Made by a program: the position numbers and the translations under genes. The notes beneath the pieces were generated by a model. The model worked only from the letters and a program-made list of their open reading frames with translations. It did no database searches and had not been told where the DNA came from. A DNA stretch of 48,531 nucleotides from a bacterium (GTDB lineage Bacteria; Patescibacteriota; Minisyncoccia; Minisyncoccales; CG1-02-41-26): NCBI GenBank assembly GCA_043802745.1, contig JAZDKU010000006.1, positions 1-48,531 of the forward strand, read 5' to 3'. Below are positions 1,484-46,982 of this stretch, piece after piece; within the stretch, counting starts at the first letter, position 1, and every line of letters begins with the position of its first letter.

Positions 1484-1657
1484 CTACTTATTATTTTGCT
1501 TCCCCCTATTTTTTATATGCTCCAAGCGATTCGCTAGGCCAAAACTTCTTGCTTTTATGCTAAGAAGTTTATCAAACCTGCCCTTACTCTCAACCTGGCC
1601 TGTCTCTCCCCTATCTTTTAGTTTTCGCGAAAAATAATTGTTGAAAAATTTTTTCAT
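1484..1657 (-). CDS. small basic hypothetical protein (57 aa)
   Basis: Hand-translated ORF below the track cutoff: MKKFFNNYFSRKLKDRGETGQVESKGRFDKLLSIKARSFGLANRLEHIKNRGKQNNK, ending in TAG at 1484-1486. It fills the otherwise empty spacer between two minus-strand genes. Confidence 0.3.
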   Translation of the reverse strand: MKKFFNNYFSRKLKDRGETGQVESKGRFDKLLSIKARSFGLANRLEHIKNRGKQNNK

Positions 1658-3571: not shown

Positions 3572-4188
3572 ACTTTAAAAATTCTTTTGATATCTTTAAT
3601 GATTTCAGGAAAAGTGCTTTGGCCAAAGTGCCCTTTGTTTTTGAATTCCTTGAAATGGGCGCTTGGCAAGGCCTTTTTGTACTTTTTAAAAGCAGCAAAC
3701 GAAACAACATCGTCGTCTTGGCTGTGATAAAAAAATAACTCTTTTGCTTGATTTTGCAAACCGCTTGAATCTTTTTTTAATTTAAAATCGACTAAAGAAT
3801 GGTGTGGGTCTTTATCGTCATAAGGGGCAGCCACTATAAGGATGGCTAAAATCTTTTTTGGAAATTTATTTTCCGATAAATATTTAACCAAAAAAATACC
3901 TCCCAAAGAATGCCCCACCAGCACAACCTCCCCCTCCAAGAATGGAAATAATTTTTCAAACCAAATTTTCCACTCAACATACTTAGCGTTAGACGGACAT
4001 GGCATTTTCGGCAAAACCACCTCATAACCTTTCCCTAACTTTTCTCCTAGCGATTCTTTCCAACCCATGCCAATTATTTTCTTAAAATCTATTTTATAAT
4101 CAAAGAGAAAAGAAAGATAATCTTTGCGGGTGTTAAAAATATGTCCGCCATGGATAATAATAATTTGTTTTTTCATAGGCTTAATCAA
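3568..4188 (-). CDS. alpha/beta serine hydrolase, YdeN/RBBP9-like
   Basis: 206 aa. GHSLGG nucleophile elbow and downstream Asp/His candidates (SQDDDVV, NKGHF). The size and order fit the YdeN family. Confidence 0.6.
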   Translation of the reverse strand: MIKPMKKQIIIIHGGHIFNTRKDYLSFLFDYKIDFKKIIGMGWKESLGEKLGKGYEVVLPKMPCPSNAKYVEWKIWFEKLFPFLEGEVVLVGHSLGGIFLVKYLSENKFPKKILAILIVAAPYDDKDPHHSLVDFKLKKDSSGLQNQAKELFFYHSQDDDVVSFAAFKKYKKALPSAHFKEFKNKGHFGQSTFPEIIKDIKRIFKV

Positions 4189-4939: not shown

Positions 4940-4950
4940 AAAATTAAATA

Positions 4951-5427
4951 TTAAACCATTAAGCGCCAGATAGAAAAATTCAAAAAACCAGCAAATGAAA
5001 CCCATAAAATATAGGGTACCAGCAACCAGGCAGCTGTTTTTGAAATTTTAGCAAAATAAAAAATTGTCATTAAAATAGCAAGCCACAAAACAATTATTTC
5101 CACAAAAGCCAACATGGGATTTTGCATGCCAAAAAACAAAACACTCCACAGAATGTTTAAAGCTAACTGCTGGAAAAAAACTAACACAGCTGTTTTTTTG
5201 CCACCAGCTGACGAATTATTTGAGGACCAAACTAAATACAATGCCACACCCATTAAAAAGAAAAGCGCTGTCCAAACAGGCCCAAATATCCAATTGGGTG
5301 GGTTAAAGCTTGGCTTAGCCAATGTGGCGTACCAAGAACCAATAGCTGGGGTGGTAAAAACTGACCCTATTATCCCCGCCCCCTCACACAAAACAATCGC
5401 CATTAAAAACTTTATTATTTTATTCAT
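4951..5427 (-). CDS. tspO: TspO/MBR tryptophan-rich sensory protein
   Basis: 158 aa with five hydrophobic helices. WYATLAKPSFNPPNWIFGPVWTALFFLMG and the Trp-rich helices are typical of TspO. Confidence 0.85.
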   Translation of the reverse strand: MNKIIKFLMAIVLCEGAGIIGSVFTTPAIGSWYATLAKPSFNPPNWIFGPVWTALFFLMGVALYLVWSSNNSSAGGKKTAVLVFFQQLALNILWSVLFFGMQNPMLAFVEIIVLWLAILMTIFYFAKISKTAAWLLVPYILWVSFAGFLNFSIWRLMV

Positions 5428-5453: not shown

Positions 5454-5615
5454 CTATTTTTTATTAAAAATAACAGCAAAAATATTTACCAATGGAACAA
5501 AAAATAAAAATATAAAAAGTGGCATATTATCAGTACTATAAACCGCTAAAAAATATACCACAAAACCAATTTGCGCCACACTAAGAAAAATCGCTAAATA
5601 ATTTAAAATTTTCAT
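5454..5615 (-). CDS. small hydrophobic protein (53 aa)
   Basis: Hand-translated: MKILNYLAIFLSVAQIGFVVYFLAVYSTDNMPLFIFLFFVPLVNIFAVIFNKK, ending in TAG at 5454-5456. The ATG sits 2 nt after the conserved hairpin, the same geometry as at 28434. Confidence 0.35.
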   Translation of the reverse strand: MKILNYLAIFLSVAQIGFVVYFLAVYSTDNMPLFIFLFFVPLVNIFAVIFNKK

Positions 5616-5617
5616 GT

Positions 5618-5660
5618 CTTAGAAATCGTTAATAAGCGAAGCGAATTTACGATTTTTTAG
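5618..5660 (-). repeat. conserved hairpin element, copy 1
   Basis: Plus-strand arms are cttagaaatcgt / acgattttttag and the loop is taataagcgaagcgaattt. It overlaps the last codons of the YgjP-like CDS. A second hairpin (5661-5713) containing CCGCCAGCTGGCGG follows it in plus-strand coordinates. Confidence 0.7.
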
Positions 5661-6123
5661 ATCCTGTTAAACGCTCTTCCGCCAGCTGGCGGAAAAAAGC
5701 GTTTAATCGGGATACTCCTTTCTTTAATTCTTTTCGTATTTCTAAATAATCAGGTATCTCCTGCCCCACTAAATTCCAAAATTTTTGGGAGTGGTTAAAC
5801 TCTTTTAAGTGGCATAACTCATGCACAATAATATAGTCAGCCAGCCTTTCAGATATCAAAACAATTTTATAATTAAAATTCAAATTTCCTTTTTTAGAAC
5901 AACTCCCCCACCGAGTTTTCTGATTTTTAATACTTATCTTATTATACTTTAACCCGTAAACTTTATTAAAATGCTCAATCCTATTTTGCGCCAAAGCCAA
6001 GGCCTGCTCCCTGTATTTTAGATAATCTTTTTTGCTCCCTTTTAAAGATACCCGTCGCCAAACCCGCCTTACCCTAAACACATAACTAACCCTCCCTTTT
6101 TGCAACTCAATCTCTTTTTTCAT
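5647..6123 (-). CDS. YgjP-like (DUF45 / SprT-like) zinc metallopeptidase-fold protein
   Basis: HELCHLKEFNHSQKFW (HExxH...H) preceded by TRWGSCS. At 158 aa it is shorter than typical family members. Its C-terminal ~22 codons are encoded by the repeat element. Confidence 0.65.
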   Translation of the reverse strand: MKKEIELQKGRVSYVFRVRRVWRRVSLKGSKKDYLKYREQALALAQNRIEHFNKVYGLKYNKISIKNQKTRWGSCSKKGNLNFNYKIVLISERLADYIIVHELCHLKEFNHSQKFWNLVGQEIPDYLEIRKELKKGVSRLNAFFRQLAEERLTGSKKS

Positions 6124-8889: not shown

Positions 8890-9405
8890 TTATTTTAAAA
8901 ACTTCAAAGGCCAAAAAATAGCTACCCCTCCAGCTGAAGCCAAGGTTCTAACTGAAGATATTCTCCTAACACATCTGTCTGGCTTATCTTGAGAAATTCC
9001 GCTCATAGTCAAAGTGTCGCCATTGGCCATAGGACATTCAAAAGTTTTGTACTCCTCTATTAAATACCTTCCAGCAAAAGCAAGCCCAATTAAAAAATAA
9101 ATAATAACCACCCAAATTAAAATTTTCTTAAACTGTATTTTCATAATTTTTATTCCACTCTCCGCTTCTTTTTCCATTTTATCTAAGCGAGTATAGTAGT
9201 CTGAAATTTCTTTGAGATGCGCCCAAGCAATCTTGCCAGTCTTGGCTTCATCGTCATTGGTCACATTGGTTTGTGGGTCATGAGCTCCATGCTCCAACTC
9301 CACCCCCAACCCCATCCTAAACTCCTCCAAATCGTACTTGGTAAAATCCACCCCAATCCCCTCCCCTATTAATTTTGCCTCCTCTTGCGTAAATTTTTTA
9401 TTCAT
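8890..9405 (-). CDS. DUF5661-like domain fused to a TM helix and a C-terminal extension (paralogue A)
   Basis: The first ~83 aa are about 85% identical to ORF 12170..12424 (FTQEEAK.IG..IGVDF..YDLEEFR.GLGVELEHG...TNVTNDDEA.TGKIAWAHLKEI.DYYTRLDKMEKEAE). A TM helix follows (ILIWVVIIYFLIGLAF). The family name is from memory. Confidence 0.6.
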   Translation of the reverse strand: MNKKFTQEEAKLIGEGIGVDFTKYDLEEFRMGLGVELEHGAHDPQTNVTNDDEAKTGKIAWAHLKEISDYYTRLDKMEKEAESGIKIMKIQFKKILIWVVIIYFLIGLAFAGRYLIEEYKTFECPMANGDTLTMSGISQDKPDRCVRRISSVRTLASAGGVAIFWPLKFLK

Positions 9406-9424
9406 AGTTTTTTCTTTTTCTTAT

Positions 9425-9628
9425 TTAAATGCCTAAGCGAGGGGCGATAAGTTTGTTCCAAAGCGCTATTAAAAGCGGCCACCCAAAAAGAAAAATAGCA
9501 ATAATTCTCAAGCTTATTTTTACCTTTTTTGATTCTTGCTTTTGGGAGATAAAATATAAAATAAGAGCTAAAATCCAAGAGCCAAAAAAAGCTATCGGAT
9601 CAGTTGCTGGCCATCCATTTTCAAACAT
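9425..9628 (-). CDS. small membrane protein (67 aa)
   Basis: Two hydrophobic helices. No motif recognised. Confidence 0.4.
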   Translation of the reverse strand: MFENGWPATDPIAFFGSWILALILYFISQKQESKKVKISLRIIAIFLFGWPLLIALWNKLIAPRLGI

Positions 9629-10131: not shown

Positions 10132-10188
10132 TTAGCGAAGGCAGGTCTCCCTATTCGCCTCCTCCTGCGTAAATTTTTTGTTACTCAT
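10132..10188 (-). pseudogene. 5' remnant of a third DUF5661-like gene
   Basis: ATGAGTAACAAAAAATTTACGCAGGAGGAGGCGAAT encodes MSNKKFTQEEAN, matching the N-termini at 9405 and 12424. The frame then runs into a GC-rich hairpin element and stops after 18 codons. Confidence 0.55.
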
Positions 10189-10253
10189 AAGTTTTATTTT
10201 TTACTTTTTATTTTTTATTTTACCTAACCCCCCTAAAGAAATAAAGCTACCCC

Positions 10254-10574
10254 CTATTTTCTTTTAATCCATTCTTTGCTAATCCACTTTTTGATAATGG
10301 CTTGGTCTAAATCAATATCCATAACCGTGGCAATAGCAAAAACCAAACCAATCACATCCGCCAATTCTTTAGCAAAGCCCTTTTTAGCTTCTTCATCTGA
10401 TAAATACTTTTCTGGCCGGCATCTTTTTTTATAAACCAAATAGGCCTGCATCAACTCGCCAACCTCTTCTCCTATCTTTAAAATTAAGTAGTCGTCATTT
10501 AAAGCGATTTTATCTTTTTCCAAATGCTCTAAAAACACTTGGGCAACTTGTTTTTGTATTTCTTTTAATTCCAT
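10254..10574 (-). CDS. MazG-like nucleotide pyrophosphohydrolase (all-alpha NTP-PPase)
   Basis: KIGEEVGELMQA ... FAKELADVIGLVFAIA gives the EExxE...ExxD helices of the MazG fold. An alternative upstream ATG at 10595 would overlap the Fic/Doc gene by 14 nt. Confidence 0.7.
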   Translation of the reverse strand: MELKEIQKQVAQVFLEHLEKDKIALNDDYLILKIGEEVGELMQAYLVYKKRCRPEKYLSDEEAKKGFAKELADVIGLVFAIATVMDIDLDQAIIKKWISKEWIKRK

Positions 10575-10581
10575 ATTTTTA

Positions 10582-11550
10582 TTATTTTTTCGCAATAAGA
10601 TTTAAAATTAAGCCAATAACTTTATCTTTTTCTTTCGTGTCGCTACAAGCAACAAGAATTGTTAATGCAGTAAGCGCAGAAGGAGTAAGCTTGGATACAT
10701 CTAAAATATTGGCTTGCTTTAAAAACCACACAAAAGCAAATGCTCCACTTCTTTTGTTGCCATCAACAAAAGGGTGATCTTTAATCATAAAATATAGAAG
10801 GTGAGCTGCTTTTTCCTCTGCGCTTTCGTATAGTTCCTTACCGCCAAAAGATTGCATCACATTGCCAATAATTCCTGCCACAAAACCCTCGCTTCTTTCT
10901 TTGCCAAAAATATCAGTTACTTCCGACCTACGCATAAGCTCTTCTTTTAACCCAGCTAAGCTTTTAGAAATTTTTTCTGTTGTTAATAAAACCTTTTTCT
11001 TTGTAAGCTTTCCTTTTGGTAAAACGCCTTTGTCATACGCATCAAGTGATAGCCAAGTATCAGCAAAAAGCGATACAAGTTCAACTGCGTCTTCTGCATC
11101 CACAACAGAGCCAGCTGGCAAAAGTTTTTTAATATCTTCCACCACGCTCAAGAACTGCGCGTAATTTTCCGAAATACGATTTTTATTGACCGCATATCCG
11201 TCAACAATATAACTTCGCAACGTTTTTGTTGCCCATTTTCTAAATTCTATTGCTACTTTTGAGTTTGTCCTATAACCAACTCCTAAAATAACATCCAGCG
11301 AATAGAGGATAATGGGCTTGTCAGAATTTGCAATATGCATTTTTTGCATATTGCTTTTTTTATCAATTTCACCATCCTTAAAAATATTATTAATATGTCG
11401 CGAAATAACCGATTGGTCAACGCCAAAAAGATTAACGATTTGCGCTTGTGTGGCCCATATTGTTTCACGCGAAAAATCCCCCCGAAGCTCAATGGCTCCT
11501 GACTTTGCTTGATAAATCACAACCTGCGATTTTTTATTACTTTTCTTCAT
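10582..11550 (-). CDS. RhuM-family N-terminal domain fused to a Fic/Doc domain (Doc-type motif)
   Basis: The N-terminus (WATQAQIVNLFGVDQSVISRHINNIF...GYRTNSKVAIEFRKWAT) is RhuM-like. The C-terminus carries HPFVDGNKRSG, the Doc-type variant (HxFxDGNKR) of the Fic motif. The ATG overlaps the HIT stop by 4 nt. Confidence 0.75.
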   Translation of the reverse strand: MKKSNKKSQVVIYQAKSGAIELRGDFSRETIWATQAQIVNLFGVDQSVISRHINNIFKDGEIDKKSNMQKMHIANSDKPIILYSLDVILGVGYRTNSKVAIEFRKWATKTLRSYIVDGYAVNKNRISENYAQFLSVVEDIKKLLPAGSVVDAEDAVELVSLFADTWLSLDAYDKGVLPKGKLTKKKVLLTTEKISKSLAGLKEELMRRSEVTDIFGKERSEGFVAGIIGNVMQSFGGKELYESAEEKAAHLLYFMIKDHPFVDGNKRSGAFAFVWFLKQANILDVSKLTPSALTALTILVACSDTKEKDKVIGLILNLIAKK

Positions 11551-12169: not shown

Positions 12170-12424
12170 CTACTCCCCTTCCGCTTCTTTTTCCATTTTA
12201 TCTAAGCGAGTGTAGTAATCTGGAATCTCTTTGAGATGGGCCCAGGCAATTTTGCCAGTCATTGCTTCATCGTCATTGGTAACATTGGTTTGTGTGTCGC
12301 AAAGCCCATGCTCCAACTCCACCCCCAAGCCCACCCTAAACTCCTCCAAATCATACACGCCAAAATCCACCCCTATCATATCCCCTATTACTTTCGCCTC
12401 CTCTTGTGTAAATTGTTTTTTCAT
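12170..12424 (-). CDS. DUF5661-like protein (paralogue B, domain only)
   Basis: 84 aa, about 85% identical to the N-terminal domain of 8890..9405. Confidence 0.6.
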   Translation of the reverse strand: MKKQFTQEEAKVIGDMIGVDFGVYDLEEFRVGLGVELEHGLCDTQTNVTNDDEAMTGKIAWAHLKEIPDYYTRLDKMEKEAEGE

Positions 12425-12440
12425 AAATAAAATGTTTTAG

Positions 12441-13004
12441 TTACCGAATAATTCGGCACAAAATTTGTGAAAAATTATAATCTAAAAAAGATGATAGAAG
12501 AATAATAGAACCGACAGCAAATAAAAGTAACATCAAAGAAAAAACTTTGTCTGTATTTTTTAGTCTTTCTTCGAAAATGTCTTCGGCAGCTTGTTCCATC
12601 TCTTTAATTTTGTCTTTTGTATAATGTTCAAAATTGCCCCTTGCAACCTCTAGACCAATTTTCTCCCAATCTTTAATATATTTTTCAATCTTGTTAACAT
12701 ACCCATTATAAATATTTTTTGTATCAGTATAAATCTTTTTCAACCAAAAAATACCTAAAAAAATAACACCAAACAAGAATATCTCGCCAATAAAAAATAA
12801 ATTCCTGTTTATTACGCTTGATATACCGGTAAAGCCAAACCCAGCTACTATCCCCACTACAGTAACAACCCTATAACTCAATTCTAATATTCTGATAAGA
12901 AACTTGTCGTGGTCCTTGACGATTTCTTTCATCGTAGCAAAAGCACTATCTATGTATTCCTGAATCTCTGATATTTTTTGTAAAATTTCTTCTTGTGTTG
13001 GCAT
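12441..13004 (-). CDS. membrane protein with helical cytoplasmic segments
   Basis: The start is set at MPTQEEILQK (13004), which avoids overlap with the 64-aa ORF. There are two central TM helices and one C-terminal TM helix. No motif recognised. Confidence 0.5.
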   Translation of the reverse strand: MPTQEEILQKISEIQEYIDSAFATMKEIVKDHDKFLIRILELSYRVVTVVGIVAGFGFTGISSVINRNLFFIGEIFLFGVIFLGIFWLKKIYTDTKNIYNGYVNKIEKYIKDWEKIGLEVARGNFEHYTKDKIKEMEQAAEDIFEERLKNTDKVFSLMLLLFAVGSIILLSSFLDYNFSQILCRIIR

Positions 13005-19706: not shown

Positions 19707-19756
19707 TTAAAGTTTCTCCAATTCTGTGTATTTAGTGGCGTTGCCTTGGGATTTTT
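19707..19756 (-). repeat. MazG-tail module, copy A (encodes SQGNATKYTELEKL-stop)
   Basis: About 48 nt, roughly 80% identical to 20285-20332 and 21927-21974. Confidence 0.8.
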
Positions 19757-20288
19757 TTATTGTGGCTTTGATGAATGAGTCCTTCTGGGCGGTGTATGTG
19801 TAGCGGTCATTTTTATATTTTTTGGCCAGCTTTTCTTTTAATTCGTTGTACTCTTTAATGGCTTCCTTATGCTTTCGCAAATAATCCCTAAAAAGTACGC
19901 AATCCTTCCACATTCGGCTGTTTAGTTTGGTTATGTGGATATAGTGAGTCCTACTACTTTCGCTACCTTTGGCGAAAAAACGCTGGCCTTTTATCCCCAC
20001 GTTATATTTATACTCATAGCCCAATTGTGTAAGGGCGTCAATGCATTTTTCAGCATTTTTTAAATTTATAACACCAATAGCTATATCAATTATGGGCTTG
20101 GCTTTAGCCCCTGGAATAGAAGTGCTTCCAACATGCTGTATGTCTAAAATATATTTGCCAATTGCCGAGTAAAGAAGTTTTGCCTCTTTTTGATATAACT
20201 TCTGCCATGCGGGATTATAGGGAAGTAACTCAACTTTTTTTCTTTGCAAACCGATAATTTTACGACTTTGAGCGGTTTCCTTTGTCAT
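19707..20288 (-). CDS. GrpB-family nucleotidyltransferase-fold protein
   Basis: VELLPYNPAW and IQHVGSTSIPGAKAKPIIDIAIGV are GrpB hallmarks. The start is set at 20288, giving an ATGA overlap with the AbiEii stop. The C-terminal 15 aa belong to the shared tail module. Confidence 0.8.
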   Translation of the reverse strand: MTKETAQSRKIIGLQRKKVELLPYNPAWQKLYQKEAKLLYSAIGKYILDIQHVGSTSIPGAKAKPIIDIAIGVINLKNAEKCIDALTQLGYEYKYNVGIKGQRFFAKGSESSRTHYIHITKLNSRMWKDCVLFRDYLRKHKEAIKEYNELKEKLAKKYKNDRYTYTAQKDSFIKATIKKSQGNATKYTELEKL

Positions 20289-20332
20289 ATCTTCTCTAAT
20301 TCTGTCCATTTTTTTGCATTGCCTTTGGATTT
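20285..20332 (-). repeat. MazG-tail module, copy B (encodes SKGNAKKWTELEKI-stop)
   Basis: See 21927-21974. Confidence 0.8.
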
Positions 20333-21103
20333 TTTAATTTCATCAAAGGGCAGGCTGTTTATCATTTTTTCAATTTCTTTATCGTCTATAAAGCGAGAAT
20401 AATGTATTTGGTTCATTTCCGCCTCTTTTTGTGTGCCAATGATTGCCCAATTATTTTTAATGCTTGCTTTGGCAATGCTCTGGCGAATCTCTTTTTGTTT
20501 AACATAGCCAACAATTTCATCAAGATTGAGCTGATACTTTTCTAAAATTAAAAACAAATCATAAAAATCACGGTAGCGCGCTCTATCGCTCATAGCGCGA
20601 ATTTTTTCGGCAGCGATTTCTTTAATATCCATAACCTTAACAGAAAAATCAACACCCCAAACATTATCGTATTTTAGCTCTTTTGCTGGCAGTAAAACAT
20701 TTTGCAAATAATCTATTTCCACTTTCAAAAAATTTGGCAAGGCAAGTGGCCCGTTGTACTGCAACTTTTCAATTTTTATGGTGGCAGGGGAAAAATAATC
20801 TTTTTTAATACTTAAATAATCCTCGCCAACAAAAATTTGCCTTGTCTCATCCAAACTAACAGATTTTCGCTTGGATGAAAAATCTAAATCTTCGGAAAAA
20901 CGAAGCTGTTCTAAATAGCAGTGGTATAAAGCAGTGCCACCCTTAAATACCAAATCATTTTTTAAAGCTGATTCAGTGATTATCTTTAAAACTATAGCCA
21001 AAAAATAATCCTTTTCCGCGATATGCAAAGGATATTTTAAGGTCTTTCTGTTTATAATTTCTAATTGCTGCCTACTTATCATATTTGTCAAAATGTTCAT
21101 CAT
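20285..21103 (-). CDS. abiEii: AbiEii/AbiGii-family nucleotidyltransferase toxin
   Basis: EKDYFLAIVL and LVFKGGTALYHCYLEQLRFSEDLDF are AbiEii hallmarks. The start is uncertain (ATGs at 21142, 21103, 21100 and 21082) and overlaps the AbiEi 3' end. Confidence 0.8.
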   Translation of the reverse strand: MMNILTNMISRQQLEIINRKTLKYPLHIAEKDYFLAIVLKIITESALKNDLVFKGGTALYHCYLEQLRFSEDLDFSSKRKSVSLDETRQIFVGEDYLSIKKDYFSPATIKIEKLQYNGPLALPNFLKVEIDYLQNVLLPAKELKYDNVWGVDFSVKVMDIKEIAAEKIRAMSDRARYRDFYDLFLILEKYQLNLDEIVGYVKQKEIRQSIAKASIKNNWAIIGTQKEAEMNQIHYSRFIDDKEIEKMINSLPFDEIKKSKGNAKKWTELEKI

Positions 21104-21863
21104 AATACAAACGCCATTTGGCATTAAATTTTTTATCGCCAAGTAACATCCGATGGGTGCTGTGTTTAATTTTTATAGAATTTTCCGCCAAACGATAAAT
21201 ATCCACAGAGTCAATCTTTAATAAATCAAAAATAAAGCCAAATGTTTTAATGGTTGCTTGGGAAAATTCTTTCAGATATTCAGCTAATCGCGCTAAATCT
21301 AAACTATGCTTATGTTCTGCAAGCTTTTCAATAACCAAATCAACGGCATATTTACTTTTGCGAAAATTAATTATATCAATCAAGGCCTTTTCAGCTGTGG
21401 CAATGCGAGTAGCTTTGTTGTCTATTATTTCTTCCTGAAAGCCAAAGAAAAGCTTTTCTTTAGTTTGGATAAAACTATATTCCGTGTTATTAAGTAAAAC
21501 AGTTTTAAATTTCTTAAGCGAAACAGATATTGTTTTGCCAGCTAACTGGTCAAACATACCATAGTATTGCAAAGCTGATTCAAAAGAAACATAGGAATCT
21601 TTAACCAAAAGCCCAGCTACCGTGTAAAACGACAACGATAAAAACCCCCGATTGCTTAAATCCGAAATAGCGTAAAGCCCATTCTTGATGCGCATAAGCC
21701 AGCCGTTTTTAACCAGTTTGGTAATAAGATTTTTGGTTTGTTGATAATCCCAGCTTTCTTTAGCTTGGCTAAAAATATCTTGGGAAGTTATAATCTGACC
21801 ATGTTTTACTATTAGCTGCTCTAAAAGCTCACTTTGTTTTGTTGATAAAATTGTGTAATTCAT
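21072..21863 (-). CDS. abiEi: AbiEi-like antitoxin / transcriptional regulator
   Basis: N-terminal winged-helix-like region ending in GWLMRIKNGLYAI (compare G.l.rl.rGlY). It is 263 aa long and sits directly upstream of AbiEii. Confidence 0.65.
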   Translation of the reverse strand: MNYTILSTKQSELLEQLIVKHGQIITSQDIFSQAKESWDYQQTKNLITKLVKNGWLMRIKNGLYAISDLSNRGFLSLSFYTVAGLLVKDSYVSFESALQYYGMFDQLAGKTISVSLKKFKTVLLNNTEYSFIQTKEKLFFGFQEEIIDNKATRIATAEKALIDIINFRKSKYAVDLVIEKLAEHKHSLDLARLAEYLKEFSQATIKTFGFIFDLLKIDSVDIYRLAENSIKIKHSTHRMLLGDKKFNAKWRLYYDEHFDKYDK

Positions 21864-21926
21864 ATATTAAAAGTAATCAATGCTTATTACTTCATACACA
21901 TATAATACACTAATATATGCAAATAA

Positions 21927-21974
21927 TCAAAATTTCTCTAATTCTGTGTATTTTTTGGCATTGCCTTTGGATTT
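21927..21974 (-). repeat. MazG-tail module, copy C (native; encodes SKGNAKKYTELEKF-stop)
   Basis: Plus strand: tcaaaatttctctaattctgtgtattttttggcattgcctttggattttt. Confidence 0.8.
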
Positions 21975-22286
21975 TTCAACGGGGTATTTTTGCTCGTTCT
22001 TTATGATTTTTTTGTCTAGGGCATCTAAAATATCAATTTCTAAATCGTGGCTCATTAGCAAAACCCAAAACAAAACATCCGCCAATTCTTCGCCTATTTC
22101 GGCTCTGTTTGTTTGCACATATTTGGCCATTTCTTCGGTGTTTTTCCACTGGAAATGCTCCATCACCTCCCCTGCTTCTAAAACAAGCGAAAGCGACAGG
22201 TCTTTTGGATTGTGAAACTGTTTCCAATCCCGCGCGTCTCGCAAGTCAATTATTCTTTTGGTTAAATTTTCAATGTTGTTGTCCAT
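21927..22286 (-). CDS. MazG-like (dCTPase-type) nucleotide pyrophosphohydrolase
   Basis: LVLEAGEVMEHFQW ... IGEELADVLFWVLLMS ... KNEQKYPVEKSKGNAKKYTEL. Both the EExxE/ExxD helices and the KYP...KKYTEL tail are native to this family. Confidence 0.8.
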   Translation of the reverse strand: MDNNIENLTKRIIDLRDARDWKQFHNPKDLSLSLVLEAGEVMEHFQWKNTEEMAKYVQTNRAEIGEELADVLFWVLLMSHDLEIDILDALDKKIIKNEQKYPVEKSKGNAKKYTELEKF

Positions 22287-22303
22287 AATTTTCTATTTTT
22301 TTG
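22250..22303 (-). repeat. direct repeat: MazG 5' end plus proximal upstream sequence (functional copy)
   Basis: cgcaagtcaattattcttttggttaaattttcaatgttgttgtccata...ttctat is repeated at 23051-23115 with a few mismatches or indels. Confidence 0.8.
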
Positions 22304-22350
22304 CCCTTGACAAACAGGTTTTAAGTTTGCTATTATATAAATACAAATCC

Positions 22351-23031
22351 TCATCGGATGGGTGCTTGCACCGGTTCATGAGGTTTTTTGTTTTTATTGG
22401 TAAAAATCATTGCCTTTGCCTCTTTCCAATTTAGCAACTGTTCGCTGATAATTTTACCCTTGATAAGATTATAAAATTTTTCATTTTTTCCCGTATACTT
22501 CCAAAGTAAACTCCCCGCTACCATATCCGCTGAATTTATCTCGGGATTATCCACGCTACTCAAATGCTTCAAAATAAACGGCTCGCCTAGTAATTCAAGC
22601 AATGTCTCGTTAAATTTTATCAAATCGTCTTTTTGTTGAAAATGCTTATCAAAAATCACTTCTTTAATTTTAACATCTTGATAAAAAACCAAACACTCTT
22701 TTAGTAAAATATAGGCAAGCAAAGCAAAATTATCGGGCGTGTCCTTTATGCTTTGGTTGTTCTTTTCAATAATTAAAGCGAAAATATTTACATCAGCCAA
22801 AGATAGCTCTTTTAGATAAACAGCTTTTGTGCGTTCGCCCGCTTTATAAAATTTAACTTCGGAAACAGCCTTTTCTTTTTTATCACATGCCATGCTCTTT
22901 CTTGCTTTTTTCAACACAGACAAAAGAACTTCTTGGGCATTAACTCCCACAGCAGCCATAATAATCACTTTATCTTTTGGATCAGGTAAAGTTCCCGATT
23001 CGTCTATCAAAATAGAAATTTTTTGGTCCAT
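22351..23031 (-). CDS. DUF3800 domain protein
   Basis: The N-terminal ILIDESGT and the later NSADMVAGSL resemble the DUF3800 pattern. 226 aa. Confidence 0.55.
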   Translation of the reverse strand: MDQKISILIDESGTLPDPKDKVIIMAAVGVNAQEVLLSVLKKARKSMACDKKEKAVSEVKFYKAGERTKAVYLKELSLADVNIFALIIEKNNQSIKDTPDNFALLAYILLKECLVFYQDVKIKEVIFDKHFQQKDDLIKFNETLLELLGEPFILKHLSSVDNPEINSADMVAGSLLWKYTGKNEKFYNLIKGKIISEQLLNWKEAKAMIFTNKNKKPHEPVQAPIR

Positions 23032-23037
23032 AAATTT

Positions 23038-23097
23038 TTATAGTTTATCGCGCAAGTCAATTATTCTTTTGGTTAAATTTTCAATATTGTTGTCCAT
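23038..23097 (-). pseudogene. orphan duplicate of the MazG 5' end (19 codons then stop)
   Basis: It encodes MDNNIENLTKRIIDLRDKL-stop. The first 17 aa are identical to the start of 21927..22286. Confidence 0.75.
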
Positions 23098-23115
23098 ATT
23101 TTTCTATCTTTTACT
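23051..23115 (-). repeat. direct repeat: MazG 5' end (orphan copy)
   Basis: Pairs with 22250-22303. The two copies bracket the DUF3800 gene. Confidence 0.8.
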
Positions 23116-23302
23116 TTTCGCCCTCGCATCTCTAAAAACATCGTCGAAAATTTCGTAGTAGTCAGCGTAAATATACTTCTGGCCATATAGATATAAACAT
23201 ATTACGCGATTTAGTTTATATTATTAGGACCAATATAAACTATTTTTTAGTAGCGATTTTATAGACTTGCTTACAGTTCTTTTCATCACCAATAATCCGC
23301 AT

Positions 23303-23575
23303 TTATTTTTTATTATTTTGCTGGCGAAACCATAGGTTTTTAAAAAATGGAATGGATAGAGTGGACAGAATAAAGCCAACGGTTGGGACAATAGCGCTAA
23401 TAAAAGGCTTGGGGAATTTGGCCACGAAGAAAAACAAAACAATAACAATGTATGTTAAAACAGCGATTAAGATTTTGCGAAACAAGCTGGTTTCCCACGC
23501 TTTATCCGCCTCAACCCGAGCATTGCGCTGTTTAATTTGCTCAATCTCGTTTTTTATCTGTTCTAATTCATCCAT
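23303..23575 (-). CDS. small membrane protein with an N-terminal coiled-coil-like segment (90 aa)
   Basis: MDELEQIKNEIEQIKQRNARVEADKAWE followed by two TM helices. Confidence 0.5.
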   Translation of the reverse strand: MDELEQIKNEIEQIKQRNARVEADKAWETSLFRKILIAVLTYIVIVLFFFVAKFPKPFISAIVPTVGFILSTLSIPFFKNLWFRQQNNKK

Positions 23576-27570: not shown

Positions 27571-28434
27571 CTATGGTTGGAAGAGTTCTTCGGGGATAAA
27601 CTTAACTTCGCTAACTTCGGGAAATTGCTTGGCTGTGGCTTCGATTTGATTCCACAGTATACTCACACGACAAGACCCCCCGCCTGTTTTATTATTAGGA
27701 TCGTTAAAATCTAAAGTTAAAACTTTGTTATTTAAAGATGCTCCTTGTAAAACAAAACCAGGTAAAGGATACTCGGTGGTAATACCCTGGGCCTTTTCTT
27801 GACTAGTTAGCTCGCCTTTTAATAACAACTTAATAGCGTCTTGGATAGGCGTTTGTGTGAGGGGAATTTGCCTTTCCACCCCCACCAATCCCTTTTCTGA
27901 ACAAGCAATATTGTCTAAATTAGGATTATAATAATAAAGCTTTATGTCTCTCTGCTCTAAGCTTGCTGAAGGATTTTGCAAAACAACAGGTATGCGGATT
28001 TCTTTTTCGTTTTCGGGCAAACCCGAGGGGTTATCGTTCATTAAGACCAAAATAGCTGGCTGGGTGGTGGTGGCAATTTTAAAATTTAAAATTGATTTAA
28101 AGGGCACAAAATTTTCCACCATCCAATCCCCCTGCGCCTGAGCAAAAGTTGAAGTAATCGTATTGCCAGATAAGTCTAGTAAAGCCACGGGAAATGTAGC
28201 TTCAAAATACCAACCGCCTCTCGCTTGGCCTGTTATAGTAAACGGGCTTTGGATAACTTGATTTGGGTTTGGGCTGTCCACTTTAATTAAATCGCTATAT
28301 TGATTGGCTAAAGTTGTGGTAGTATTTGGATTTGGCACAACAACTTCTTCTTTATCTTGCTTTTGCGAAAACAAAAACCATGCCAAAGCCCCAACCACAG
28401 CAACTAACAAAATTACAATAAGTATTTTTTTCAT
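27571..28434 (-). CDS. secreted Gmad2 Ig-like plus GerMN domain protein
   Basis: Signal anchor. PFTITGQARGGWYFEATFPVALLD (Gmad2-like). The C-terminal KLYYYN...CSEKGLVGVERQIP...AIKLLLKG...LTLDF is GerMN-like. Confidence 0.6.
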   Translation of the reverse strand: MKKILIVILLVAVVGALAWFLFSQKQDKEEVVVPNPNTTTTLANQYSDLIKVDSPNPNQVIQSPFTITGQARGGWYFEATFPVALLDLSGNTITSTFAQAQGDWMVENFVPFKSILNFKIATTTQPAILVLMNDNPSGLPENEKEIRIPVVLQNPSASLEQRDIKLYYYNPNLDNIACSEKGLVGVERQIPLTQTPIQDAIKLLLKGELTSQEKAQGITTEYPLPGFVLQGASLNNKVLTLDFNDPNNKTGGGSCRVSILWNQIEATAKQFPEVSEVKFIPEELFQP

Positions 28435-28436
28435 AT

Positions 28437-28479
28437 GTTAGAAATCGTTAATGAGTGAAACGAATTTACGAGTTCTTAC
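28437..28479 (-). repeat. conserved hairpin element, copy 2
   Basis: Arms are gttagaaatcgt / acgagttcttac and the loop is taatgagtgaaacgaattt. On the transcribed strand it ends 2 nt before the ATG at 28434. A second hairpin is at 28480-28520. Confidence 0.7.
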
Positions 28480-28530
28480 ACCCCGTTAAACGCGACCTCA
28501 AGGAGCTGTTTAACTGGGGTATTCTTAATT

Positions 28531-33630: not shown

Positions 33631-33673
33631 ATTAGAATAACTTAATGAGTGAAACGAATTTAGTTATTCTTAT
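33631..33673 (-). repeat. conserved hairpin element, copy 3 (abuts G1 of tRNA-Ile)
   Basis: Arms are attagaataact / agttattcttat (11 of 12 positions paired) and the loop is taatgagtgaaacgaattt, identical to copy 2. A GC-rich hairpin lies at 33674-33705 (flanking, upstream in the transcript). Confidence 0.75.
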
Positions 33674-33714
33674 GTCCCGCCGAAGCCTTGGCGTAGGCGG
33701 ACTACTTTGTTCTC

Positions 33715-42124: not shown

Positions 42125-42170
42125 TTCCGACCCCACTCCTCGGCCCGCAAGCCGAGGGGTGGGGTCGGAA
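42125..42170 (-). repeat. GC-rich 20-bp-stem hairpin, copy 1
   Basis: ttccgaccccactcctcggc-ccgcaa-gccgaggggtggggtcggaa fills the rpsB-tsf spacer. It lies 3 nt after the rpsB stop and 12 nt before the tsf ATG. Confidence 0.8.
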
Positions 42171-46938: not shown

Positions 46939-46982
46939 TCCGACCCCGCCCCTCTGCTTGCGGGCAGAGGAGTGGGGTCGGA
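46939..46982 (-). repeat. GC-rich 19-bp-stem hairpin, copy 2 (inverted relative to copy 1)
   Basis: tccgaccccgcccctctgc-ttgcgg-gcagaggagtggggtcgga. It lies 6 nt after the ferredoxin stop and 8 nt before the rplY ATG. Confidence 0.8.

Follow-up and report, generated by a model that had tools for sequence, protein, structure and literature searches.

A DUF3800 gene and a predicted convergent antisense RNA form a small cassette between two copies of a MazG gene start in a Patescibacteriota genome

How can a gene be interrupted near its start by another gene and still be present in full? This question is raised by a 48,531-nt stretch of DNA, here called the window (GenBank assembly GCA_043802745.1, contig JAZDKU010000006.1, positions 1 to 48,531; Patescibacteriota, Minisyncoccia, Minisyncoccales, CG1-02-41-26), in which a DUF3800 gene is bracketed by two copies of the 5′ end of a gene for a MazG-like nucleotide pyrophosphohydrolase. 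The element between the copies is a cassette of ~740 bp (22307–23047, minus strand), which holds the DUF3800 gene and a predicted small RNA (sRNA) gene convergent to it. It appears to have entered MazG after codon 17, and MazG would have survived because a second copy of its 5′ region follows the cassette. Related loci (L numbers) and metagenome contigs (X1–X4) contain this cassette, or others of its kind, in many different settings and frequently next to a duplicated end of the local gene.

A cassette between two copies of the MazG start

The two copies form a 65-nt direct repeat, 22237–22301 and 23048–23112, which is identical at 61 of 65 positions and has a spacing of 811. When one 6-nt indel is allowed, the repeat widens to 22237–22307 for the proximal (downstream) copy and 23048–23124 for the distal (upstream) copy, both on the minus strand (71 and 77 nt), and the distal copy then begins ~27 nt ahead of the ATG and reaches codon 17. 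The repeats reported in the original prediction (22250–22303 and 23051–23115) are real, their coordinates falling inside or close to the 65-nt pair. The 47-nt core, from the ATG to TTGCG, has exactly two occurrences in the window, with none expected from 100 shuffles.

The distal copy has its ATG at 23097 and the same 17 codons as MazG, followed by two more and by a TAA at 23038–23040. The resulting mini-ORF (open reading frame) of 19 codons plus stop (23038–23097, minus strand; MDNNIENLTKRIIDLRDKL and stop) ends 6 nt ahead of the DUF3800 ATG, and its translation bears out what had been predicted for this copy. The proximal copy runs uninterrupted into the intact gene for the 119-aa MazG-like protein (21927–22286, minus strand; Pfam MazG-like, E 2.7e-19), again as predicted. 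The order along the locus is therefore target piece, cassette and target piece running on into MazG. The sequence TGCGAG is found at both edges of the duplicated MazG segment, and the two copies differ at only two coding positions, both synonymous.

The limits of the cassette are defined by other contexts. Approximately 735 bp of it are found again at 84–92% nucleotide identity in L008, L039, L040/41, L042 and L119, which all have different neighbourhoods, and the cassette is also present in X2/X3 contigs, giving at least seven other genomic contexts in total. In every one of these loci, homology to the window covers the interval from 23032–23049 to 22306/22307. Read along the gene strand, the right end of the cassette lies directly after ...TTTGTCAA(G/T), i.e., ...TTGTCAA(G/T), and the left end lies 1–18 nt upstream of the DUF3800 ATG. 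No terminal inverted repeats are present between 22307–22330 and 23025–23047, no recombinase is encoded in the cassette, and Pfam detects no integrase or transposase family among 20 ORFs of the window. No promoter-like sequence was seen between the left cassette end and the DUF3800 ATG.

The two copies of the repeat abut the cassette ends that the other contexts define independently. This agreement supports the insertion part of the original prediction, a cassette insertion with duplication of the target, but not its proposed duplication length of 55–65 bp, which is 71–77 bp in the alignment described above. Judged by its distribution over unrelated neighbourhoods, the cassette appears to be a horizontally mobile two-gene unit.

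Alternative alleles of the site are consistent with this view. In X2 and X3 contigs, the start of the cassette is joined to the stop codon of a gene for a 90-aa membrane protein (joint 23036->23302), without the distal remnant. In X3 rec 18, the cassette end at 22307 is joined to an unrelated flank, and in X3 rec 17 a different, L007-like cassette end stands against the same MazG 5′ piece. MazG alleles free of DUF3800, which the original prediction had suggested looking for, exist as Fic-MazG in L001, L003–6, L121 and L123, with a MazG protein that is 90–92% identical in L001 and L003–6. The junction between remnant and DUF3800 occurs at 97% identity in the independent contigs X1 rec 8 (22887–23092) and X4 rec 27 (22806–23102), while the junction between cassette end and MazG is spanned by X1 rec 4 (22249–22396), X4 rec 24 (22249–22373), and X2 rec 9 and X3 rec 16 (22105–22352). 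The junction-bearing sequences are assembled contigs rather than raw reads; they stem from related strains of two independent groundwater studies. Among sequencing runs, the highest share of the region's words in any single run was ~21%, and exact look-ups of the MazG and DUF3800 proteins of the window gave no match.

The DUF3800 protein and its convergent RNA

The DUF3800-family coding sequence (22351–23031, minus strand) specifies a 226-aa protein, which was assigned on the basis of Pfam, homologues and a structural model. The match to Pfam PF12686 covers profile positions 4–147 of 149 and, with 19.6 bits (E 0.0016), lies under the 21-bit gathering cutoff; PF12686 is carried by homologues of the protein at 43–63% identity. 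Within the N-terminal D-E(-S-G) motif, D10, E11 and G13 are invariant in 43 sequences. The AlphaFold model of the protein has a predicted local distance difference test score (pLDDT) of 87.5, and its top fold matches in the PDB, as determined by Foldseek, are RNase HII/HIII/H2 (E 1.5e-5). The protein matched no transposase Pfam family, and its RNase H-like, RNase HII/H2-type fold is nearest to RNase H2. An RNase H-like fold of DUF3800 is in line with published predictions (PMC10910872, PMC7736814). PADLOC returned a weak match to the candidate system PDC-M04A (E 0.0036). Published associations link DUF3800 to type VII retrons and place it adjacent to Cas12a2/a3 and Cas13.

The DUF3800 coding sequence had been described as the only gene between the repeats, but a predicted convergent sRNA gene on the plus strand, with promoter and terminator, is located there as well. 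Its sigma-70-type promoter (22307–22336, plus strand; TTGACA-N18-TATTAT with TG) has 11 of 12 matches and is the best-scoring site of the region. The −35 element TTGACA (22307–22312) constitutes the outermost sequence of the cassette, and the −10 element ends at 22336. The predicted sRNA of ~48 nt (22343–22395, plus strand, with a putative start) is recognised by fold, covariation, promoter and terminator. It consists of a hairpin (22349–22383), starting ~7 nt past the promoter and folding with −22.8 kcal/mol (z −5.05), and a subsequent U-run terminator, UUUUUUGUUUUU. The conserved core of the hairpin is UGGAUGG-GYGC-UUG-GCRC-CGGUUC. The predicted sRNA is antisense to the final ~13 codons of DUF3800, and both genes converge on one hairpin.

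The succession of promoter, variable-sequence stem, core, closing stem and U-run is the common layout of 73 non-identical related sequences, and the promoter layout is kept in most of them. In an alignment of 51 sequences, 98.8% pairing is seen for the inner helix, three of whose pairs show compensatory changes, and all six pairs of the outer helix covary. Cells with double changes number 126 versus 47.7 in shuffles, a value that none of 500 shuffles attains, and slid controls collapse. With its own promoter, covarying helices and an intrinsic terminator, the predicted RNA shows all the generic features of a structured sRNA gene.

Structured RNAs with a Rho-independent terminator beside DUF3800 genes have been described as the motifs DUF3800-I to -XI (Weinberg et al. 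2017, PMC5737381). That study gives no function for them and describes neither a gene-RNA unit with fixed ends nor flanking target duplications. The window resembles these cases in combining a DUF3800 gene with a structured RNA, but differs from them in that its RNA matches no Rfam DUF3800 model: no match was obtained at E up to 1 in the window or at E up to 10 (131 nt), and none of the motifs was detected at gathering score in 17 related loci. Weak Rfam matches of the window RNA to RefA9 and mir-2002 were judged to be chance. The connection to the published motifs is provided by L007, which carries DUF3800-II at the same position (56.5 bits, 1492–1559, minus strand), where it is antisense to the 3′-terminal part of a DUF3800 gene encoding 189 aa. 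This gene belongs to a different subfamily, yet its promoter arrangement and its ...TTGTCAAG end agree with those of the window. On both sides of it lies a ~101-nt duplication of the end of an SDH protease gene, followed by a MazG that is 93% identical to that of the window. The arrangement in L007 fits the published observation that DUF3800 genes are accompanied by eleven RNA motifs which are unlike one another.

DUF3800 genes and the eleven orphan RNA motifs have been a puzzle since 2017. In the present locus and its relatives, gene and RNA belong to one compact unit with fixed ends, and the RNA is a predicted convergent antisense transcript. The unit moves among numerous sites of the chromosome, and in many cases a gene end is left in duplicate. 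A vague association is thereby turned into testable questions, concerning a toxin-antitoxin or defence role, self-mobilisation, and the choice between host recombination and a new insertion chemistry.

Type I toxin-antitoxin loci such as par/fst and txpA/ratA consist of convergent overlapping transcripts, while type III systems are protein-RNA pairs. The cassette resembles par/fst and txpA/ratA in that a protein gene and an sRNA with its own promoter meet at a shared hairpin terminator, and in being compact and horizontally moving. It differs from them by encoding a 226-aa RNase H-like protein instead of a small membrane peptide, and by a conservation of the RNA core that exceeds what antisense pairing alone would need. 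The gene layout, the PDC-M04A match and the published retron and CRISPR associations bear on the role of the module, which would most likely be that of a nuclease-RNA pair of the toxin-antitoxin or defence type.

Gene-end duplications in related loci and their origin

Flanking repeats are a recurrent feature of the family. A total of 111 loci encoding relatives of the DUF3800 protein were fetched, and in 106 of them 350 nt upstream were compared with 450 nt downstream by BLAST. A repeat of at least 40 bits was found in 28 of the 106 loci versus 8 of 92 control ORFs of similar size from the same loci. At least 4 of these 8 control ORFs are themselves DUF3800-like and are followed by the same TATA...TTGTCAA motif. 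For the 57 unique loci, a null distribution was built from mismatched flanks, the upstream one taken from one locus and the downstream one from a different locus; 26 loci exceed its 99th percentile, and the median score is 23 versus 16. L017 is a false positive among these 26: its 133-nt repeat is not a bracket but the variable/template pair of a diversity-generating retroelement. Between the two L017 copies (3632–3764 and 4946–5078), every difference makes the upstream codon Asn AAC downstream, and a DUF3800-sRNA cassette lies between them.

The repeats of the family are 23–209 nt long and 86–100% identical, and some contexts have no repeat, so that they do not behave as fixed-length, initially identical target-site duplications. 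Their targets are diverse. The repeat corresponds to the 5′ end of atpG in L061/L011, to the 5′ end of a membrane-protein gene in L066, L068 and L070, to the start of a gene for a protein beginning ...KIKIGVIGGSGL in L030, to the last ~100 nt of the SDH protease gene in L007, and to intergenic, terminator-bearing sequence in L096. The proposal that other cargo might be flanked in the same manner is thus borne out for DUF3800-type cargo, which in many loci stands between repeats derived from other targets. A gene-end repeat on both sides together with an intact target gene is found in the window, L007, L061, L066, L030 and L070. The insertion point lies either just behind the start signals of the resident gene or, in L007, just past its stop codon. 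The element can be classed as a small mobile cassette with a target-restoring duplication. It shows how the variable islands of small Patescibacteria genomes can grow without gene loss, even at the essential atpG.

Several cassettes can be stacked at one site. In L070 (1965–4526), the first ~31 codons of a single gene are present four times and separate three cassettes of different DUF3800 subfamilies; in all four, the start codon sits inside the (A/G)TGTCAA motif of the cassette end. Tandem arrays like that of L070 also involve L066 and L068, and in L117 (74–1952) a terminator-bearing repeat of 72–75 nt is present three times, with two DUF3800-like genes between the copies. Several targets have a GTCAA of their own at the repeat edge. 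These hints at a site-specific core, either GTCAA or TGCGAG, are real but too few to serve as a test.

The differences between the copies bear on how the duplications arose. They were counted in the frame of the target gene and curated by hand, and the frames of L061 and L068 were re-read manually. The copies are separated by five synonymous and no non-synonymous changes in L007, including Ser AGC/TCC and TAA/TAG, by four and one in L066, by seven and three in L068, where the three are conservative, by three and two in L032, by one and one in L030, and by two and none in the window. L061 shows three and none, and further upstream has Leu CTT/TTA and Arg CGT/AGA with an identical peptide. The sum over the curated cases is ~25 synonymous to 7 non-synonymous changes, and pairwise comparison of the four copies in L070 gives 28 to 14. 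For a remnant decaying in place, a silent share of ~40% is expected, by estimate and not by a formal test; the silent share found is far above this value, and therefore each copy would have evolved within a working gene. Across the family, the copies look like two functional alleles and not like a decaying duplicate. The cassette may thus have brought in a gene end that stems from a different lineage, or a later exchange may have replaced the intact copy.

As two functional alleles with mostly synonymous differences are more readily explained by recombination, homology-anchored recombination is held, with moderate confidence, to be a likelier source of the duplication than the staggered cut of a transposase. 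This origin is close to the recombination between MazG paralogues that the original prediction had offered as its alternative. Supporting indications are the variable length of the duplication, the lack of a detectable transposase, integrase or terminal inverted repeat, the mostly synonymous differences, including those in L007, L061, L066 and L070, and the finding that other cargo of the window is bracketed in like manner. Alleles with 90-aa gene and DUF3800 but no relic, with MazG-GrpB but no AbiE, and with Fic-MazG but no DUF3800 fit recombination between repeats. The gene-end duplications of related cassettes point to a way of moving that has not been described.

In detail, the cassette would travel linked to a short piece of the adjoining gene, either as a circle or as a linear fragment. 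The linked piece would recombine with the resident homologue by Campbell-type or homology-facilitated illegitimate integration, and the resident and the incoming gene ends would be left as a direct repeat. Later recombination from repeat to repeat could delete, swap or stack cassettes. In the inserted state, transcription of DUF3800 may be supplied by the upstream remnant, and ribosomes may reach the gene via the 19-codon mini-ORF, which would probably deliver both to DUF3800. MazG would be expressed from its duplicated leader, possibly helped by the TATA-rich promoter region of the sRNA.

Several observations weigh against recombination anchored by homology. The cassette ends are sharp in every context and carry over no DNA from an earlier one, which would favour a precise end-recognising enzyme over generalised recombination. 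In most copies of the same subtype (L008, L039, L040-42, L119), the repeats are short, imperfect or absent, and a long duplication is hence not obligatory. The use of a single duplication end point by the three different cassettes of L070, and the presence of GTCAA or TGCGAG at repeat edges, hint at site specificity. Moreover, the two coding differences of the window itself are too few to decide.

These points lead to true transposition as a possible, though doubtful, explanation. An enzyme linked to the cassette, or a factor acting in trans, would read the ends and nick the target at positions 23–209 nt apart, and gap repair would produce the duplication. The enzyme could be DUF3800 itself, possibly with the sRNA, and the copies would have diverged later or the intact copy would have been replaced by homologous recombination. 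Transposition would account for sharp, invariant ends in at least eight contexts without co-transferred flank, for repeat copies that abut these ends exactly, for the shared end point in L070, and for GTCAA-like edges in several targets and TGCGAG on both sides of the MazG segment. The RNase H-like fold class, moreover, includes many transposases. On the other hand, the folds closest to DUF3800 are RNase HII/H2 and not DDE transposases, the cassette ends have no terminal inverted repeats, and the duplication is of variable length and missing from some contexts. Furthermore, a non-functional remnant would not preserve differences that are confined chiefly to synonymous sites and include multi-nucleotide switches.

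A bolder form of this idea, which is considered unlikely, holds that DUF3800 and the sRNA constitute a new type of autonomous mobile element. In this view the protein, perhaps via the RNA, would recognise the ...TTGTCAA end and insert the 0.7-kb unit into the end regions of transcribed genes, making long and variable duplications that keep the target working. If true, this would also account for the at least 12 unrelated RNA motifs that accompany DUF3800 genes.

Even less probable is an origin without any insertion, in which DUF3800 was flanked by two full MazG paralogues, as in tandem X-MazG modules of the Fic-MazG and DUF3800-MazG kind, and the upstream paralogue was deleted down to 17 codons. 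MazG is indeed a recurrent module partner, as seen in the Fic-MazG pairs of L001, L003-6 and the window (10254–11550). L003-6 and X1–X4 contigs contain upstream relics whose 5′ end continues in frame into the 3′ tail, indicating that MazG copies upstream of cargo do shrink by internal deletion. However, the remnant ends 1–16 nt from the independently defined left end of the cassette, a position that a random deletion would rarely hit, and the repeat begins exactly at the right cassette end. The same geometry is also seen with single-copy genes such as atpG, for which a second full copy is unlikely.

An assembly artefact, i.e., a chimeric or collapsed repeat from co-assembled strains with different MazG contexts, would have overturned the original prediction but is very improbable: the region varies between strains, with Logan contig breaks at 22233, 22307 and 22352, but both junctions and the alternative alleles are present in independent assemblies of two studies, and the same architecture recurs in unrelated assemblies (L007, L061, L066, L070 and others), so that the duplication is not a product of assembly.

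Known integrative systems share some of these properties. Phage 21 and e14, which integrate in icd, and islands in tRNA genes are integrative elements that bring with them a substitute for the end of the gene they enter. The cassette resembles them in its in-gene insertion, the direct repeat of a gene end on both sides, the intact gene, the silent differences between copies and the stacking seen in L070. Unlike these elements, it is only 0.74 kb long, close cassettes use many targets, and no integrase was found in the cassette or among the 20 ORFs of the window that were scanned.

In homology-facilitated illegitimate recombination during natural transformation, one side of the incoming DNA is anchored by homology, while the other has little or none. 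Its outcomes vary between duplication, replacement and deletion, as they do here, and this variability would explain the alleles with and without the remnant (23036->23302). It predicts, however, neither invariant ends nor the reuse of an end point by different cassettes. Integron cassettes are small, mostly promoterless units, arranged head-to-tail in one orientation, that are gained and lost by recombination at repeated sites. The stacking of cassettes between repeats is similar, but in the DUF3800 loci the repeats are locus-specific pieces of the local target gene, and there is neither an attC-type site nor an IntI nearby. In the literature that was searched, DUF3800 genes are nowhere described as mobile cassettes, and no such duplications are mentioned.

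Neighbouring genes and other repeats of the window

All genes of the region are located on the minus strand, and the G+C content of the window is ~35%. This base composition, the genes present and the names of the nearest database proteins assign the window to groundwater Patescibacteria. In transcription order, a gene for a 904-aa FKBP-fusion protein is followed by the 90-aa membrane-protein gene (23575–23303), the 19-codon MazG relic, DUF3800 (23031–22351) and MazG (22286–21927), and then by AbiEi, AbiEii, GrpB and an SDH-type ClpP-like protease. Directly upstream of the distal repeat copy lies an ORF fragment (~23113–23200, ending ...YADYYEIFDDVFRDARAKSKR and stop), which has no counterpart among the fetched loci. 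A remnant of Fic was ruled out for it.

The 90-aa gene (23303–23575; relatives in L001 and L119-L127) is a conserved anchor with a varying downstream neighbour, which can be Fic(-MazG), a restriction-modification system, DUF3800 or the arrangement of the window. This gene marks a hotspot for insertions. The order is reversed in L119, where the DUF3800 cassette is found on its upstream side. The MazG-like family is very large and strongly conserved, with 7999 of 7999 scored candidates passing E 0.001; the best 120 clusters share 72–95% identity over 115–149 aa and represent many Patescibacteria lineages.

The 3′ end of MazG mirrors the pattern at its 5′ end, as the original prediction had noted. 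A 53-nt repeat (R3) encodes the last ~16 codons of MazG (21927–21979), AbiEii (20285–20337) and GrpB (19707–19759), all on the minus strand, with 75–87% identity to the copy at 20285–20337 as reference. The tail, ...KSKGNAKKYTELEKF and stop, is in frame in all three genes and native to MazG only: the Pfam MazG-like match extends to residue 116 of 119, while the GrpB match stops at residue 185 of 200. The AbiEii copy bounds an AbiEi/AbiEii cassette (20338–21926), and the AbiEii stop codon overlaps a GrpB ATG (ATGA). An allele without AbiEi/AbiEii is present in X3, where 20315 is joined to 21958 with 19 shared nt, which puts the crossover within R3. This AbiE block is also found in L039, again behind a copy of the R3 tail.

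Both ends of MazG are also found combined in mini-MazG relics. In L003 (5036–5140), and also in L004-L006, the MazG 5′ repeat is fused almost directly to the 3′ tail, e.g., MDNNIKELTKRIIDLRDAQKKSKGNAKKWTELEK and stop. In X1–X4 contigs, window position 22236, 22249 or 22224 is joined to 20333 or 20335, and the fusion is in frame in both junction variants that were translated. The relic lies upstream of Fic in L003 and directly past the DUF3800 cassette end in X1 and X4.

A bracket around different cargo is formed by the start of a DUF5661-like gene (MNKKFTQEEA...), which occurs three times in the window (9161–9426, 10154–10206 and 12180–12445). Two copies are full genes that share 246 nt at 87% identity, and one is an 11-codon relic. 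They bracket HIT, RhuM/Fic and a second MazG-like gene, and then two small membrane genes. This is the same pattern with cargo other than DUF3800.

Two further repeats of the window are dispersed. The sequence TTAGAAATCGTTAATGAGTGAAACGAATTTACGA..., 48–66 nt long, has three copies of 77–85% identity (5609–5674, 28428–28493 and 33632–33679), one of which lies beside tRNA-Ile. A G+C-rich palindrome of 44 nt with a perfect stem, TCCGACCCCACTCCTCGGCC...GGTCGGA, is present in two copies of 80% identity (42126–42169 and 46939–46982) and is unusual for a genome of 35% G+C.

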